DNA of 64,000 nucleotides, taken from assembly GCA_030649025.1 (NCBI GenBank), contig JAUSGO010000031.1, positions 9,745 through 73,744 of the forward strand. The letters are read 5' to 3'. Of this stretch, positions 1 through 31,764 are shown piece after piece (the first letter of the stretch is position 1; the number at the start of each line of letters is the position of its first letter). A model generated the notes under the pieces. That model did not search any database. It was not told the DNA's origin and saw only the letters and a list, made by a program, of their open reading frames with translations. The translations under genes were made by a program, and so were the position numbers. Source of the DNA: a bacterium. GTDB taxonomy: Bacteria > Patescibacteriota > Minisyncoccia > JAUYLV01.

Positions 1-548
1 TTCGAAAGCGCTGTGTTGCTTTTCCGCGTCTTTGTCACCTTGCCATCGGCACCGGGAATAATCTCGTCGTACTCATAGCGGACGGCAAGGGGCGGCACAG
101 CATAGGCGCCAAGCGGAAGGTTTCCCAGAAGTCGCAGGACAACGGTGAACTCTTGCGCCGTCACTCCTTCCGCACCGGGAAGCGTTATGCGATTTCCCAC
201 TGCGATTGAGACTACCGAGAAAGGCGCTAGGTCCTGACCGGCATCAACTTCGACGCGAACGCCGGCAAGAGATCTTACAACATAATGGAATTTCACGGGC
301 TCGTCTCCGACAAACACTTCCCGCTCCGCCAAAACACTAACAAGCACGGGTGGCCGACGGGGCGGCGCGGTCTTTCCTTCCTCGGGAGAAGGCTTGGGCA
401 CCGGAGCCTCCGCAGCTGCGGGAGGTTGAGCGGATTGTCCAAATTCGTTGGAAAATCCACCATCTTGAGCCGTTGCATAACCCTGAAAAAGGCAACCGAA
501 GAGCAGCACAAACGGCGCAAAACGGAACTTTCTTGACAAGTATTTCAT
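1..548 (-). CDS. Partial secreted hypothetical protein. It starts at ATG 548 and the 3' end runs off the window edge.
   Basis: Manual translation of the minus strand from 548 gives MKYLSRKFRFAPFVLLFGCLFQGYATAQDGG... with no stop before position 1. The N-terminus has a signal peptide. It is co-oriented with the DUF58 and MoxR genes. Confidence 0.45.
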   Translation of the reverse strand, partial: MKYLSRKFRFAPFVLLFGCLFQGYATAQDGGFSNEFGQSAQPPAAAEAPVPKPSPEEGKTAPPRRPPVLVSVLAEREVFVGDEPVKFHYVVRSLAGVRVEVDAGQDLAPFSVVSIAVGNRITLPGAEGVTAQEFTVVLRLLGNLPLGAYAVPPLAVRYEYDEIIPGADGKVTKTRKSNTALS

Positions 549-802
549 GATCCACCTCTCTAAAAGCGTATTGAGTTTTAAAATAACTTACAGAATCGTA
601 CTTTGTAGCGTACCGAAGAGATTGGGGAAAGTCAAACTCCTATATTAAGGGAGCCCATATGTGGAACGGATAACCGGATCAATAAAGAATAGCGAGGTAT
701 TGCCTAACAAATAATGACATCCTCCCCGGACTCTAAGGCCCAGATTCATGTGAGGTCCCCCGGTAAAAAGAAAAAGCCATGGGACGTACCCATGGCTTCA
801 TG

Positions 803-2784: not shown

Positions 2785-4158
2785 ATGTTCCCGTTGTCAA
2801 AATATAACATCCCGATTAAACTGCTTCTGAAAAATTTTTCCGCGGCCCCAAAAAATACCGGGGTTTATTTCTTTTTGTCCCGCGCAGGAAAAGCCCTTTA
2901 CATCGGCAAGGCTATCGATATTAGAACGCGTCTTCGGTCACACTTTGCAAATGCGGATACGGCTAATCCTGCCAAGGCAAAGCTTCTTAAAGAAACGTGC
3001 GCGGTCCGGTGGGAGCTGTGCGATTCGGAGCCGGAAGCGCTCATTCGCGAGGCCGAACTCATTAAAAAACTGAAACCCAGATTCAATATCCTCCTGCGGG
3101 ACGACAAAAACTATTTTTTTGTCGCTATTACCAAAGAGCCTTTCCCAAAAGTATTTTTGACACACCAGCCTTCCACGCCCTTAAAATCCATAAGTTACGG
3201 ACAAGAAGCCAAATACATCGGGCCTTTTACGGACGGGGGCTCACTCAAACAGACATTAAAACATCTGCGGAAAATTTTTCCTTACTGTATCTGCAAAACA
3301 CCGCATAGACGGCCCTGCCTTGCTGCCCTTCTTGGAAGATGCGCCGGCGCCTGTTGCCTTAAAGAGGCAAGGTTAAAATTAAAAAACTACGGAGAAATTA
3401 AGCGCCGATACCGGCAGGGAATCTTATCGCTCGCGGAAACTCTTGGCGGAAAACGTTATGCGCTAGGCGCCAGGCTTTTGCGCGAAATGAAAATTTCTGC
3501 CCGAAAAAATGAATTTGAAAAAGCAGCGCTCCTGCGCGATCAACTTCGGGCGCTTGAGACAGTTTTTAGACATCGTGCAGTCGTGGCAAACCGGGACATC
3601 AAAGAGGAGCGCGAAAAGGCCTTGAGTCACCTGCAAAAGTTATTAGATCTGCCAAAAGCGCCGCGCCGCATTGAGATGTACGATATGTCGAATATCCAGG
3701 GAACATGGGCTGTCGGATCCATGGTTGTATTCACCGATGGCTTGCCCGACAAAAGCCAATACCGCAAGTTCCGCATAAAAACTGTTCGCGGCATCGACGA
3801 TACGGCCATGATGCAAGAAGTCATCTGGCGCCGCCTGCGGCACAATGAATGGCCGATAGCCGATATACTTGCGGTGGACGGAGGAAAAGGACAAATGAGC
3901 GCAACGCTTACAGCGTTGTACAATACCCAATATCCAATACCCAATATCCAATACATGCCAATCCTAGGATTGGCAAAGGGAAAGGACGAATTACATTACA
4001 TGACATTTGAGGCTAAAAGCTATGAGCTAAAAGCTATAAGCTCTATGCCCCGCTCCCGCCTCCCCCGCCCGCTCCGGCATCTTCTGAACCATCTTCAAGC
4101 CGAAGCGCACCGATTCGCAATTACCTACCATCGGAAATTACGATCTTCCGGAACTTAG
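2785..4158 (+). CDS. uvrC: Excinuclease ABC subunit C (UvrC), C-terminally short and lacking the (HhH)2 domain.
   Basis: N-terminal GIY-YIG motif (GVYFF...YIGKA). RNase H-like endonuclease region (MYDMSNIQG, DGGKGQ, EAHRFAITYHRK). The ORF ends about 150 aa earlier than a typical UvrC. Confidence 0.8.
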   Translation: MFPLSKYNIPIKLLLKNFSAAPKNTGVYFFLSRAGKALYIGKAIDIRTRLRSHFANADTANPAKAKLLKETCAVRWELCDSEPEALIREAELIKKLKPRFNILLRDDKNYFFVAITKEPFPKVFLTHQPSTPLKSISYGQEAKYIGPFTDGGSLKQTLKHLRKIFPYCICKTPHRRPCLAALLGRCAGACCLKEARLKLKNYGEIKRRYRQGILSLAETLGGKRYALGARLLREMKISARKNEFEKAALLRDQLRALETVFRHRAVVANRDIKEEREKALSHLQKLLDLPKAPRRIEMYDMSNIQGTWAVGSMVVFTDGLPDKSQYRKFRIKTVRGIDDTAMMQEVIWRRLRHNEWPIADILAVDGGKGQMSATLTALYNTQYPIPNIQYMPILGLAKGKDELHYMTFEAKSYELKAISSMPRSRLPRPLRHLLNHLQAEAHRFAITYHRKLRSSGT

Positions 4159-27026: not shown

Positions 27027-28283
27027 CTATTCTTTCACTATGGATACGAACTTCCCTTTCGCAAGGAGCGTCTCGACCTCTTCATGCGCACTAAGCTCTA
27101 AAGCATCTTTTATCACTCTACCATTTTTCCTGGTGATGGAGTAGCCCCGGGCTAAAATTCCGCGGGGATTGAGCGTTTTGAGCAGATCGGAAATGCGCCG
27201 TATTTCCTGACGATACTTTTCCATGCGCCCCGAAAAAGCGGTCTGCAATCTTGAAGAAAGCATTCTTCCTTTTTCTATCTTTTCAAGAAGCGGCCGCGCA
27301 AGCCGCCTCATCGCCTCCCCAAGGCGTTCGGATGCCAAACGTGCGTGCCGTTGTATTAAGCTTCCGAGTTCGACTTCCCACGTATCCAATTCGAATTGAA
27401 CTCCCTCGCGAGAAGGTGTTACAACCTCGGCGGCATTTGAGGGCGTAGACGCCCGCAGATCGCAAGCAAGATCCGCCAAAGTAATGTCCCGCTCGTGCCC
27501 GACGCCAACCACCACCGGGATTTTTGAAGCGAAGATCGCCCGCGCAACGCTCTCGGTGTTAAATGCCGCAAGGTCCTCTAGCGACCCTCCCCCGCGTACC
27601 ACAACCAAAACATCGGGTACGGGCATGTGATCGTTAAAATACTGTACCGCACGGACAACCTCTTCCTCGGCTTTAGCACCCTGCACATGCACGTTCATGA
27701 ACGATATTTCAATGCCGCCCCAGCGGTTGTTGAGAATTCTCAGAAAATCAGAATACGCCGCCGCCTCACGCGAGGTGATAAGTCCGATCCGCTCCGGAAA
27801 GCGAGGCAGGGTTTTTTTACGCTCGGGCAAAAATAACCCCTCCGCTTCAAGCTTCCGCCGCATAATTTCAAAAGCGCGCTTAAGCGCCCCTTCACCGACC
27901 GGCTCAATGGATTTTACGCGGAACGTGTATTTTCCGTAGGGAACATAGAGACCCGGAGAACCGGTTACGAGAACTTCCATGCCGTCTTCCAATTCCGTAC
28001 GCAACTGGAATGCCATGATAAAACAATTCATGCGCGCCGCCTCATCCTTGAGATCGAAGTAGATGAACTTTCCGTTCTGCGAGCGTTTGAAGTCGCAAAC
28101 CTCTCCCCGAACTCGCACCATCACTTCAGAAAGTTCCGCATTCACAAAGTTGCTAAGCTCGGCTACCGTATAGATTTTTTGATCATCAAGCAGCATAAGA
28201 TTCCTAAAAACATCATACCATATTTGGGAACTTGACCCCCACACCTTTAGTGCGTTGACGGCGCAAAGCGCCGCGAACAGCAT
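27027..28283 (-). CDS. xseA: Exodeoxyribonuclease VII large subunit.
   Basis: N-terminal OB fold plus the catalytic domain. Confidence 0.9.
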   Translation of the reverse strand: MLFAALCAVNALKVWGSSSQIWYDVFRNLMLLDDQKIYTVAELSNFVNAELSEVMVRVRGEVCDFKRSQNGKFIYFDLKDEAARMNCFIMAFQLRTELEDGMEVLVTGSPGLYVPYGKYTFRVKSIEPVGEGALKRAFEIMRRKLEAEGLFLPERKKTLPRFPERIGLITSREAAAYSDFLRILNNRWGGIEISFMNVHVQGAKAEEEVVRAVQYFNDHMPVPDVLVVVRGGGSLEDLAAFNTESVARAIFASKIPVVVGVGHERDITLADLACDLRASTPSNAAEVVTPSREGVQFELDTWEVELGSLIQRHARLASERLGEAMRRLARPLLEKIEKGRMLSSRLQTAFSGRMEKYRQEIRRISDLLKTLNPRGILARGYSITRKNGRVIKDALELSAHEEVETLLAKGKFVSIVKE

Positions 28284-28372
28284 CTAAAGCAGGAGAAGAA
28301 TTTTCTTGGAAATACACTTCTTGCTATATGCCCACGCGTACCATATACGCACTAAAGGTGAGGGGGTTGACA

Positions 28373-28400
28373 AAATTTAAAGAGATAGTATAATGGACAT
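28373..28400 (+). promoter_or_regulatory. Consensus sigma70-type promoter: TTGACA, 16-nt spacer, TATAAT.
   Basis: Exact -35 (28373-28378) and -10 (28395-28400) hexamers. No protein gene lies downstream on the plus strand. Confidence 0.5.
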
Positions 28401-28404
28401 CGTG

Positions 28405-28823
28405 AGGCTGAGTTCTTTTATGCCCCGACTAAAAGCGGCTGATTCGAGGAAGTATTGGCCTCCCCAATTTTTGTGAGGGGGGATAACGCTGAATTCCAGC
28501 TCCGGAACTGGGAACGCCGTGAAATCCAGTATAACCTCGCTTGATGATTGCGCGCATGCCGCCTCCTGTGGGGGCCATCACAAGGGGAAGAATCGCCCAC
28601 CATCTCTTTTTTTTACAGAGGGCGCTATCCCCGGTAAATTCGCGGAGAGTATCCCGTTTATCCTTTTGTCATTTGGAGTGCTACTCCCGACTCGGCCTTT
28701 TTGAAGCGCCCGACGGGACGGGGAAAGAAACCCCCGTCCTCCGGGCCAAACCCCGCCTTGCGGCGGATTGTTGGGTAAAAAACCCGGCGTGGTCTTCATG
28801 ACACGCCGGGTATAAATTTTTTT
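28405..28823 (+). ncRNA. Candidate structured ncRNA of about 400 nt, identity unknown, driven by the consensus promoter and ending at a terminator hairpin.
   Basis: No credible ORF. Many GC-rich helices, for example GACGGGG-AAAGAAAC-CCCCGUC and CCGCC-UUGC-GGCGG. The hairpin 28783-28810 is followed by a T-tract. RNase P, tmRNA and SRP signatures were not found by eye. Confidence 0.35.
28777..28823. terminator. Bidirectional rho-independent terminator: clpB on the minus strand, candidate ncRNA on the plus strand.
   Basis: Stem CCCGGCGTG...CACGCCGGG with an A-tract upstream and a T-tract downstream. Confidence 0.6.
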
Positions 28824-28879
28824 ACGCAAAAAAGGCCTGGAGACAATCCGGGCTTTTTAAAAAAACTCTCGTGCCGACC

Positions 28880-31501
28880 CTATTTCTTGGACACAATCAC
28901 CACTTTACCGCCTATCAGGTCGGCCTCTACCGTGTCCCCTTCCTTCACTTTGCCTTCTATGATCTCGCGCGCCATGGGGTCCATAATGACCGTTTGCATA
29001 ACGCGCTTTAACGGACGCGCGCCATACGACGGATCATAGCCCATACCCGCAAGAAATTTCCTTGCTGCCGTGGAAACTTCGAGTTTTACCTGTTTATCCT
29101 GTAGACGCTCGTTAAGCCTTTTCACCTGCACGTCCACGATCTTCTCTATCACGCGGGGTGTGAGGTTGTTGAATATCACGACTTCATCGATGCGATTTAA
29201 AAACTCCGGGCGGAAATGCTTTGTAAGTTCCCGTCCGACCTCCTCCTTGATCTCGTCTTTGGCAACACCCTCCATGAAAAGATTTTGCGCAAGGTTTGAG
29301 GTCATGATAATAATGGTATTTTTGAAATTCACCGCTCTGCCTTTGGCATCGGTGAGTTTTCCGTTGTCGAGCACCTGCAGGAGAATGTTAAAAATTTCCG
29401 GGTGCGCTTTCTCGATCTCATCAAATAGTACTACGCTGTAGGGCCTGCGGCGCACCGCTTCGGTCAATTGTCCCCCTTCCTCAAATCCGACGTAGCCCGG
29501 AGGAGAGCCGATGAGGCGCGATACGGCATGCTGTTCCATATATTCGGACATATCAAGCCGTATTAAAGCTTTTTCATCATTGAATAAGAACTCCGCCAGG
29601 GCACGAGCAAGCTCGGTCTTTCCCACGCCGGTAGGCCCCAGGAAAATAAACGATGCGGTCGGCCGCGTGGCCTCGGCAAGGCCCGCCCGGCTTCTGCGAA
29701 TGGCGTCCGCGATGCTCCGCACCGCATCATCCTGTCCGATAACGCGTTTCCCAAGGATCTCTTCCATGAGCGAGAGTTTCATGGATTCGGTTTCTCGGAG
29801 TTTGGTGACCGGGATCCCGGTCCATTGCGCCACCACGCGGGCAATATCCTCCTCATCGACCTCTTCTTTCAAAAAGCGGTGTTTTTTTTCAAGATCAAAA
29901 AGTTTTTTATCGAGGTCTTTTAGCTTATTTTCGACATTGGGCAGGCGGCCATAGCGGATCTCCGCAACCTTCTCCAGGTTCCCTTCCCGCTCATGACGTT
30001 CGGCTTCGGCACGAAGCCTTTCGCGTTCCTCCTTGGCTTTCCGGATCTCGGCTATCATATTCTTTTCCTTATGCCACTGCGCTTCAAGGATTTTGACCTT
30101 CTCTCTCGTATCGGCAATTTCCTTCTCGACTTTCTCAAGCCGTTCCTGTATGCGTTTGTCTTTTTTCCGTCCAAGAAGTTTTTGCTCGTTTTTTAACGCC
30201 TCGCGCTCGATCTCAAGCGTCGTAATGCGCCGAGAAGCCGTATCGAGTTCCTGCGGCATTGAGTCAATTTCCAGCCGAATGAATGAAGCAGCCTCATCCA
30301 TCAAATCAACGGCTTTATCTGGAAGGAATCGTTCGGCTATGTAGCGGTGCGAGAGTTCCGAGGCCGCGATAAGCGCCCGGTCGGTAATACGCACGCCATG
30401 ATGCACCTCGTAGCGTTCCTTGAGTCCCCGCAAGATCGCTATCGTATCTTCCACCGAAGGCTCTTTAACCAAAACCGGCTGGAAGCGTCGCTCCAGCGCC
30501 GCGTCTTTTTCAATATGGCGCTGGTATTCTTTGATGGTGGTTGCCCCGATGGCATGCAGTTCCCCGCGTGCAAGCGCCGGCTTAAGGAGATTTGAAGCGT
30601 CAATGGAGCCTTCGGCTGCGCCTGCGCCGATAAGCATGTGCAATTCATCTATAAAAAGGATGATCTTCCCTTCATTGGCCGTGACCTCCTTCACCACGGC
30701 TTTCAGCCGCTCTTCGAATTCCCCGCGGAACTTCGTGCCGGCAACCAGACTTCCCAGATCAAGCGCAACAAGCTCTTTGCGCTTCAAGCTCTCGGGAACA
30801 TCGCCCGCGACAATACGTTGCGCCAGACCTTCCACAATTGCGGTTTTTCCGACGCCCGCCTCTCCGATAAGCACGGGATTATTTTTCGTACGGCGTGCCA
30901 ACACCTGCATGACGCGGCGAATCTCTCCGTCTCTCCCGATAACCGGATCCAACTTCCCTTCCCGCGCGAGCTTTGTAAGATTCCGCGCATACTTCTCCAG
31001 TATCTGATATTTTGATTCCGGTTCATGCGATTCCACGCGCTGCGACCCCCGAAGGGATTTAAGCGCCTTAAGGGTCGCTTCCTCCGAAACATTGGCTTCT
31101 TCAAGAACCTTCAGGGCAAGGGATTTCTGGCGCAGGAGACCAAGGAGCAGATGCTCGGTAGAAACGTAATCGTCGTGCATTGTCTGTCGCGCACGATCGG
31201 CTTCGGCAAATACACCGGCAAGTTCCTGGGTCAGATACATCTGATTGCCGGCGTTCTCCTGAACATTGCGTGTCCGCGGAAGCTGGGATAGCGCTTCATC
31301 GGTACGGGCAAGTATCATTTTTGCGTCAATGCCTATTTTAGAAAATATCTGCGGAATAAAACCATCGGCGTCCGAAGCCAATGAAAAAAGAAGGTGCAGG
31401 GCGTCAATGCTCTGCTGCCCCCGGGCGCGCGCAACATGCGCGGCTTGTTCAACCGCCTGCTGGGCTTTGTTCGTGAAACTGTTCGGGTCCATGACGGGCA
31501 T
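28880..31501 (-). CDS. clpB: ATP-dependent chaperone ClpB.
   Basis: Two AAA+ modules with Walker A GEAGVGKT and GPTGVGKT, a middle coiled coil, and the N-terminal Clp_N domain. Confidence 0.95.
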
Positions 31502-31678: not shown

Positions 31679-31764
31679 TTCCGGCGCTCCAAGAAAGCGT
31701 AAGCAAGCTTCCGCCTTGCTTCTCGCTTGGAATTATAGCATATCCTTTAGTACTTGACAAGAGC

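Follow-up and report, generated by a model that had tools for sequence, protein, structure and literature searches.

In enterobacterial small RNAs (sRNAs) such as RybB and OmrA/OmrB, the promoter and the 5′ end are the conserved parts of the gene; these RNAs are 70-110 nt long and carry a single-stranded 5′ seed. 6S RNA (RF00013) folds into a rod with a central bubble, and OLE, ROOL, GOLLD, HEARO and raiA are long intergenic transcripts with GC-rich hairpins and no open reading frame (ORF). Warman and colleagues are said to have described, in Nature Microbiology in 2021, noncoding transcripts that diverge from gene starts at bacterial promoters which are bidirectional or lie close together. 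Here we describe a locus that resembles each of these in part: the gene-free interval between xseA and clpB in a 64,000-nt stretch of the bacterial contig JAUSGO010000031.1 (assembly GCA_030649025.1), hereafter the window. The interval holds an exact consensus promoter that points away from xseA, no detectable coding sequence, and a hairpin terminator specific to the strand of the promoter. We put the probability at about one half that this is an independent noncoding unit of the plus strand, with a promoter position, a 5′ end and a closing helix in common with its relatives and a body specific to its own lineage.

Like the genes of RybB and OmrA/OmrB, the candidate would stand alone, with its own promoter and intrinsic terminator and without an ORF, and conservation lies in the promoter and the first ~10 nt while the rest diverges fast. 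Its predicted RNA is, however, ~460 nt long (120-340 nt in relatives) and folds, in the models, with a paired 5′ end; neither an Hfq-type module nor a target has been identified for it, and the phylum is unrelated. It shares with 6S RNA a strong housekeeping-type promoter, a stem closing the 5′ end onto a distal segment, and poor conservation between lineages, but the interior is predicted to be multi-branched, in the window as in relatives, and lengths here vary from 120 to 460 nt. From OLE, ROOL, GOLLD, HEARO and raiA it differs in lacking a conserved multi-helix core and in having an ordinary folding energy. The divergent promoter transcripts likewise lie back-to-back with a gene start, are unconserved in sequence and are stopped by a terminator; at this locus, by contrast, it is the noncoding direction, and not that of the gene, which has a perfect -35/-10 pair; there is a conserved 5′ motif together with a covarying helix, and no symmetric overlapping -10 was found. 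Inspection of the relatives by eye gave no conserved symmetric bidirectional -10 either.

A probable plus-strand unit between xseA and clpB

The interval measures 683 bp (28197-28879), from the ATG of xseA (28196) to the stop of clpB (28880), and is the widest gap in a compact window; most other gaps in this compact genome are shorter than 200 bp. The start of XseA is confirmed by the 389-aa NCBI protein and by the N-termini of homologues. The preliminary description of this DNA had reported an exact TTGACA-N16-TATAAT promoter at 28373-28400. All 12 positions do match, but the element lies 6 nt to the left of that position (Table 1). By our own estimate, a 12/12 match is expected by chance about 0.02 times per 128 kb of strand, and just three sites of at least 11/12 occur on the two strands of the 64 kb. 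The remaining two, at 31754 (plus) and 31760 (minus), fall in the divergent promoter region of clpB and a 799-aa gene, where promoters are expected. Given that the match is exact and rare, and that the genome uses such promoters at a bona fide divergent region, this finding supports a plus-strand unit. The two other sites match at 11/12 each and overlap face-to-face within that 343-bp region; judged from them, the local -35 consensus appears to be TTGACAA.

On the opposite strand, no promoter-like site reached the scan threshold (at least 9/12) between 27900 and 29200. A candidate extended -10 of xseA was read by eye close to the gene. It has no -35 match, hence its absence from the promoter scan, implies a very short leader and lies about 150 bp from the plus-strand promoter.

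Two hairpins lie at the distal end of the interval. The preliminary description had let the transcript end at the first of these and its U-tract (28783-28823). This hairpin (T1) and a T-run on the plus strand (28816-28822) do exist. The stem is directly followed by a run of six uridines (U6) on the minus strand only, while on the plus strand the T-run starts 5 nt later. Because the adjacent U-run is found on the minus strand alone, T1 is, to judge from its sequence, the terminator of clpB. The second hairpin (T2) has a predicted stability of -17.3 kcal/mol (z -5.2) on the plus strand versus -8.4 kcal/mol (z -1.1) on the minus strand, where it is unstable because the G·U pairs of the plus strand turn into C·A mismatches. 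According to these folding models, T2 is the better plus-strand terminator of the two. A plus-specific terminator without a plus-strand gene ahead of it is sequence-level evidence for transcription of the plus strand. We regard the locus as a real noncoding unit that is probably transcribed.

Coding capacity

The claim that the interval is free of plausible ORFs was borne out by each of the approaches used. A codon-usage log-odds scan trained on the genes of the window gave no more than 0.12 bits/codon in any frame of the interval, versus 0.2-0.48 in the flanking genes. The five longest ORFs of the interval have no Pfam match, an 86-aa ORF has no hit among 1.84 billion representative proteins, and no homologue was found for a 50-aa ORF of the minus strand. 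A pseudogene was likewise rejected, since a blastx comparison with 11,204 ORFs of related loci was empty.

We consider it very unlikely that the interval encodes one or more very small proteins. Candidate frames are present, namely a leaderless GUG-started peptide of 24 aa, a TTG-started ORF of 29 aa and a basic 42-aa ORF on the minus strand, the last of which alone has a strong Shine-Dalgarno sequence, together with a faint codon signal (Table 1). In addition, one related locus (L171) has a 94-aa ORF called behind an equivalent promoter. However, the ORFs that were tested are without homologues, the peptides that would start at the conserved GUG span 6-58 aa and are unrelated among relatives, and the homologous RNAs of two relatives (L164 and L173, described below) differ by a 1-nt indel that puts them in different frames. 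For the 42-aa ORF, no minus-strand promoter is available at the scan threshold. Nor is a Shine-Dalgarno sequence diagnostic: in the start regions of 12 long genes of the window, most are without a recognizable one, and since this holds for most genes of the genome, its presence or absence is uninformative for small ORFs here. A type I toxin-antitoxin system, which would pair a small hydrophobic toxin ORF with an overlapping antisense RNA, was considered and rejected, the only ORF preceded by a Shine-Dalgarno sequence (42 aa, minus strand) being basic rather than hydrophobic and having neither homologues nor a promoter.

The L171 locus (421-705, minus strand) has an xseA-divergent TTGACA-16-TATACT promoter followed by the 94-aa ORF, which contains a hydrophobic stretch and has no Pfam match. 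The GUGRGG start discussed below is absent here. The ORF may have been over-called, or it may encode a genuine small membrane protein.

Comparison with known RNA families

Rfam was searched at the gathering threshold over the whole window and at E ≤ 10 over positions 28100-28950 (851 nt, both strands). The only family found in the window was a tRNA-Ser elsewhere, and the interval gave nothing but terminator-like noise at E ≤ 10. The RNaseP_bact_a/b models and those of OLE, ROOL, GOLLD, HEARO and raiA had no match at either setting; tmRNA (transfer-messenger RNA), 6S RNA and the RNA of the signal recognition particle (SRP) had none even at E ≤ 10, and the minimum free energy (MFE) structure of the window RNA is multi-branched. 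ARAGORN reported only the tRNA-Ser in the window and no tmRNA, permuted forms included. The failure to recognize RNase P, tmRNA or SRP motifs by eye in the preliminary description was thus upheld, and as far as these models reach the unit belongs to no known RNA family.

Could these models have missed a highly divergent housekeeping RNA (RNase P RNA, tmRNA, 6S RNA or SRP RNA)? Genes of this kind typically have a size of ~400 nt and a strong promoter, none of the four is present in the window, and nine nucleotides, GGCUGAUUC, resemble the 5′ end of tmRNA. The conserved P4 strands of RNase P RNA are CR-I (GAGGAAAGUCC...) and CR-V (ACAGAA..CGGCUUA). To the eye, however, the interval shows no P4, CR-I or CR-V-like blocks, no T-arm or ACCA end and no tag reading frame, and the searches described above gave no support at the most permissive setting. 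Moreover, one would expect conservation of such an RNA in relatives whose ClpB is 80% identical, but no alignment to them was found. We regard this explanation as close to negligible.

Divergent units at the ExoVII genes of relatives

The organism is represented by a Patescibacteria-like metagenome-assembled genome, and matches to XseA and ClpB come from Saccharimonadales, Parcubacteria and similar groups. The contig of the window itself is present a single time in the Logan collection. In GTDB representative genomes and JGI metagenomes, the best XseA matches are 45% identical and nothing like the interval was found there. The closest relatives reached are 78-82% identical in ClpB and 60-63% in XseA. 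In the relatives with 78-82% ClpB identity, another gene follows clpB after 44-137 nt and the interval is absent; hence the adjacency of clpB and xseA is not conserved.

The comparison set comprised 174 related loci, some of which are referred to by the labels L162 to L173, and a promoter-motif pattern search was run over 1.26 Mb of these loci. A consensus promoter divergent from xseA or xseB (together, xse) recurs in L162, L163, L164/L165, L169 and L173, that is, in at least five related lineages. In each of these units, the predicted RNA starts with GUGRGG, would pair this end with a distal complement, contains no ORF over a body of 120-340 nt and stops at a terminator specific to its strand. 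Sites of the form TTGACA-N15-19-TAnnnT-N3-16-GTGARG occur in the 1.26 Mb only in the window and divergent from xseA (L162, L169) or xseB (L164/L165). L163 has the same arrangement with a GUGGGG start, and L173 has one promoter before xseB (GUGAGG) and a second before xseA. There is contact or overlap between the -35 box and the start codon of the xse gene in four loci (L162, L163, L164 and L173). The window copy is the largest and the least structured of these units; taken alone it is weak evidence, and the interest of the locus comes from its recurrence across relatives.

The second promoter of L173 (147-205, minus strand) reads TTGACA-16-TACGCT. Its -35 box falls within codons 2-4 of xseA, a second copy of the spacer motif ATTGTAGGG stands ~50 nt downstream, and the contig stops short of the end of the predicted transcript.

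The closest relative, L169 (GCA_030699565.1, JAUYLV010000087.1), has a 658-bp interval upstream of xseA. The opposite strand carries TTGACA-16-TATACT with an extended -10 (TG), an 11/12 match, from which the predicted RNA listed in Table 1 would start. This RNA has a folding z of -6.5 versus -3.0 on the other strand, a 14-bp closing helix around four hairpins and no Rfam match, and is a stronger candidate for a noncoding RNA than the window copy.

The structured RNAs that are divergent from xseB in L164, L165 and L173 are conserved between lineages. The L164/L165 and L173 sequences align over ~230 nt and keep several hairpins through compensatory changes, and a 1-nt indel directly after GUGAGGAUG shifts every frame, so that no reading frame is shared and a conserved peptide is improbable. 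They are not in Rfam. The window RNA resembles them in promoter type, orientation to the ExoVII gene (for exodeoxyribonuclease VII), GUGAGG start, predicted closing helix and terminator; its body, in contrast, is unrelated and twice as long. In an nhmmer comparison, only the promoter and the 5′ motif were matched (E 0.8). A covariance model built from the L164/L173 RNA (R1), which scores its own members at 249-352 bits, found with filters off only terminator hairpins in the window interval and in L169, at no more than 7.6 bits. By these tests, the window RNA is not a homologue of the L164/L173 body.

The same holds more widely. Searches of the 174 related loci by nhmmer, blastn and shuffled Smith-Waterman alignment, in both orientations, found no match to the window body, nor did searches of phage and plasmid collections or exact-pattern scans of viral contigs. 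The body conservation for which the preliminary description had suggested looking is therefore absent from the related loci by nhmmer, blastn and covariance model alike. Two short likenesses, CGAGGAAGU..UGGC to the opposite strand of L169 and CUUUUUGAA(G/U)CGC to L164, are at chance level (E 0.88 for the latter).

The predicted closing helix

In the MFE structure of every xse-divergent RNA, the GUGRGG end pairs with a distal complement and closes a domain of 60-290 nt. To assess this pairing, the observed duplex was compared with those of 1000 shuffles of the 5′ 14-mer. The resulting p values are 0.002 for L163, 0.009 for L164, <0.001 for L169 and 0.004 for L173, while the window gives 0.08 and L162 gives 0.34. 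In the window, the predicted duplex has -17.3 kcal/mol. Its GUG faces UUU, with two wobbles and one mismatch, rather than the CAC of the relatives, and it includes two G·U pairs, which make the helix specific to the plus strand.

When six 5′ ends were aligned on the motif, 82% of the cells paired versus 68% in shuffles (0/500), in an alignment hand-fitted to the structure. In the same hand-fitted alignment, 8 of the 13 pairs change on both sides, and pairing falls to 32-46% when the partner is slid.

Table 1. Coordinates of the features of the xseA-clpB interval and of related units. Positions are those of the window unless another locus is named.
Feature	Coordinates	Strand	Remarks
xseA (exodeoxyribonuclease VII large subunit)	27027..28196	-	divergent from the plus-strand promoter
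Candidate extended -10 of xseA, TGgTATGAT	28212..28220	-	read by eye; ~16 nt upstream of ATG
Imperfect palindrome, 133 bp	28235..28367		21-nt arms ACGCACTAAAGGTG[A/T]GGGGGT, 20/21 complementary
Sigma-70 type promoter, TTGACA-16 nt-TATAAT	28367..28394	+	12/12 consensus; predicted start ~28401
Putative noncoding transcript, ~458 nt (423 nt if stopping at first hairpin)	28401..28858	+	ends predicted from promoter and terminators
GUGAGG 5′-terminal motif	28402..28407	+	variants in relatives: GUGAGG, GUGGGG, GUGAAG
Candidate leaderless GUG-started peptide, 24 aa	28402-28476	+	candidate frame only
Predicted closing helix, 5′ strand (GAGGCUGAGU)	28404..28413	+	MFE structure; pairs with 28690-28699
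Candidate basic ORF, 42 aa	28429-28557	-	AGGAGG 4 nt ahead; 0.05-0.12 bits/codon
Candidate TTG-started ORF, 29 aa	28455-28544	+	candidate frame only
Predicted closing helix, 3′ strand (ACUCGGCCUU), then UUUGAAGCGC	28690..28699	+	MFE structure
GC-rich hairpin GGGACGGGG-aaagaaa-CCCCCGUCC	28715..28739	+	inside larger stem 28708-28746
Hairpin T1	28782..28811		perfect 10-bp stem, equally stable on both strands
Hairpin T2, then UUUUU	28830..28858	+	predicted terminator of the plus-strand transcript
clpB	28880..31501	-	convergent with the predicted plus-strand transcript
Predicted L169 RNA	1596-1969 of JAUYLV010000087.1	-	~335 ORF-free nt; terminator working on that strand only
Conserved xseB-divergent RNA, ~230-290 nt	L164 6858-7179; L165 2309-2630; L173 1775-2103	-	nhmmer E 1e-30 between lineages

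Folding of the predicted RNA

The stem-loops listed in the preliminary description are all present: the GGGACGGGG/CCCCCGUCC hairpin of Table 1, CCGCC/GGCGG at ~28754-28767 and CCUCCCC/GGGGGG at ~28460-28481. The region of the first (28700-28775) folds with a z of -3.1 on the plus and -2.9 on the minus strand, so the hairpin is not strand-specific. The further claim that the transcript is highly structured did not survive comparison with the background. For the body without the terminator (28401-28775), the MFE z is -1.9 on the plus and -2.3 on the minus strand (-2.7 and -3.6, respectively, with the terminator included), and 38 random 375-nt windows of the same sequence have a mean z of -0.6 with a standard deviation of 1.4. 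The plus-strand body thus lies within about one standard deviation of the background.

These values also bear on a different reading, raised in the preliminary description, in which the minus strand of the interval would provide xseA with a long structured 5′ leader, transcribed by read-through from clpB or from an internal promoter. In both comparisons the minus strand folds slightly better than the plus strand, and the 133-nt palindrome described below would fold inside such a leader. Yet two terminators follow clpB, of which T1 has its U6 run adjacent on that very strand, and no minus-strand promoter-like site reaches 9/12. The candidate extended -10 of xseA, moreover, stands right next to the gene, and relatives have short upstream regions before xseA, or none. 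A long leader is, in our judgment, a highly improbable explanation.

A palindrome between xseA and the promoter

The exceptional fold at this locus is found outside the predicted transcript. The imperfect palindrome of 133 bp, which separates the plus-strand -35 box from the promoter region of xseA, has a fold z of -7 to -8 and a TTGA direct repeat on either side; the first T of the -35 box is the last base of its right arm. It resembles an insertion between xseA and the promoter, and is a candidate for either an insertion like a miniature inverted-repeat transposable element (MITE) or a pair of operator sites. If it is removed in silico, the -35 box would stand 36 nt from the xseA ATG. The 21-nt arm does not occur elsewhere in the window or, allowing up to 5 mismatches, in relatives, and was accordingly rejected as a regulon motif.

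A different palindromic repeat of ~125 bp, with terminal inverted repeats GTCATYGCGAG and internal hairpins, sits in the intergenic regions of relatives by xseA, xseB and clpB (L169 2073-2200, L164 6729-6846, L165 2181-2297 and L168 3677-3788). It looks like a repeat family of the clade, similar to MITEs or repetitive extragenic palindromic (REP) elements.

Such elements raise the question of whether the interval is DNA that has decayed or been imported, left over for example from a lost gene or from mobile elements, and that has kept a promoter by chance and has no present function. The neighborhood is not syntenic, a different gene following clpB in the relatives; several relatives have only a short region upstream of xseA; the 133-bp palindrome with its direct repeats is insertion-like; the ~125-bp repeat of the relatives sits in intergenic regions of the same kinds; and the body is an orphan wherever it was searched for. 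On the other hand, no trace of a protein frame was found, a 12/12 promoter with a strand-matched terminator is unlikely to persist unselected in a compact genome, and relatives have a promoter in the same place, with the same 5′ motif. We therefore consider decay or import quite unlikely.

Promoter or product

The main alternative to a functional noncoding RNA is that the promoter is the functional element and the RNA a terminated by-product whose sequence drifts. ExoVII would then be controlled by competition for RNA polymerase, by occlusion of a weak xse promoter or by divergent supercoiling. Several of the observations described above would be expected in this case. The promoter keeps its position relative to the xse start, up to contact between the -35 box and the start codon in four relatives, and the distance in the window would be similarly short but for the palindrome. 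The bodies, in turn, are unrelated in sequence and run from 120 to 460 nt, that of the window is not unusually structured, and L173 has the module before both xseA and xseB. Nevertheless, this explanation leaves unaccounted for the conserved GUGRGG start with its covarying closing helix, the strong strand-specific structure of the L169 RNA, and the conservation of the L164/L173 RNAs with compensatory changes. It also finds no partner on the gene side: by eye, the xse strand has no conserved -10-like hexamer at a fixed offset from the RNA promoter, and the candidate -10 of the window xseA is separate from the plus-strand promoter. We consider a role of the promoter alone unlikely, though it is the likeliest of the alternatives.

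Several points weigh against an independent noncoding unit shared with relatives. The body of the window RNA has no detectable homologue anywhere searched, R1 recognizes only terminator hairpins in it, and its folding energy is ordinary against the genome background. Taken alone, its closing helix does not reach significance (p 0.08), nor does that of L162 by a wide margin (p 0.34), and the helix alignment, being hand-fitted to the structure, overstates the case for pairing and covariation. The likeness of the promoters may reflect only the strong-promoter consensus of the clade (TTGACAA ... TGCTATAAT), and the promoter of a protein gene in L168 looks alike. Finally, L163 and L169 have orthologous Gmad2-xseA intergenic regions without any body sequence in common, suggesting that the product is weakly constrained.

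The L168 promoter (3217-3647, minus strand) is a 12/12 match, TTGACA-18-TATAAT with TG, and is followed by an apparently uncalled ORF that starts MAEIYGLSRWDYF..., upstream of a called 147-aa gene. As it has no GUGRGG start, it is a useful control strong promoter.

Discussion

Taken together, the promoter, the lack of coding sequence, the plus-specific terminator and the recurrence of such units beside ExoVII genes favor an independent noncoding transcription unit in the window. Its assignment to a clade-specific group of xse-divergent RNAs is tentative. Understood in this way, the locus is an sRNA-type gene of an undescribed, clade-restricted group. The original proposal of a candidate novel noncoding RNA is thus retained as an ORF-free stretch from promoter to terminator that belongs to no known family, but without the high structure and without conservation of the body.

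How such a unit might work can be outlined. The consensus sigma-70 promoter, constitutive in appearance, would start an RNA at ~28401 that opens with GUGAGG, contains no translatable gene and stops at the plus-specific T2 just before the convergent clpB. The GUGRGG 5′ end would be locked into a closing helix with its distal complement, and the enclosed body would be free to turn over fast in both sequence and length (120-460 nt). Modelled in this manner, the product would be a stable regulatory or sponge-type RNA, its 5′ end protected by the closing helix, and not an mRNA or a leader.

A bolder proposal can also be made, which we regard as speculative and, on balance, unlikely. The window RNA may be a diverged member of an undescribed, clade-wide family in Patescibacteria that is tied to xseA/xseB and defined by a strong promoter, by GUGRGG held in a covarying helix and by a hypervariable interior, and that would help to control ExoVII or the response to DNA damage.

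Regulatory RNAs of Patescibacteria (the candidate phyla radiation) are almost unexplored, and a gene-free interval of ~680 bp with a perfect promoter stands out in genomes as compact as these. If the promoter alone matters, the locus would be an example of how a potentially harmful nuclease is controlled by a strong promoter placed back-to-back with its gene. If instead a true family is at hand, it would be an instructive case, with promoter, 5′ end and closing helix preserved around a changing interior. Should the RNA family prove real, it would be among the first lineage-specific noncoding RNAs described for Patescibacteria.

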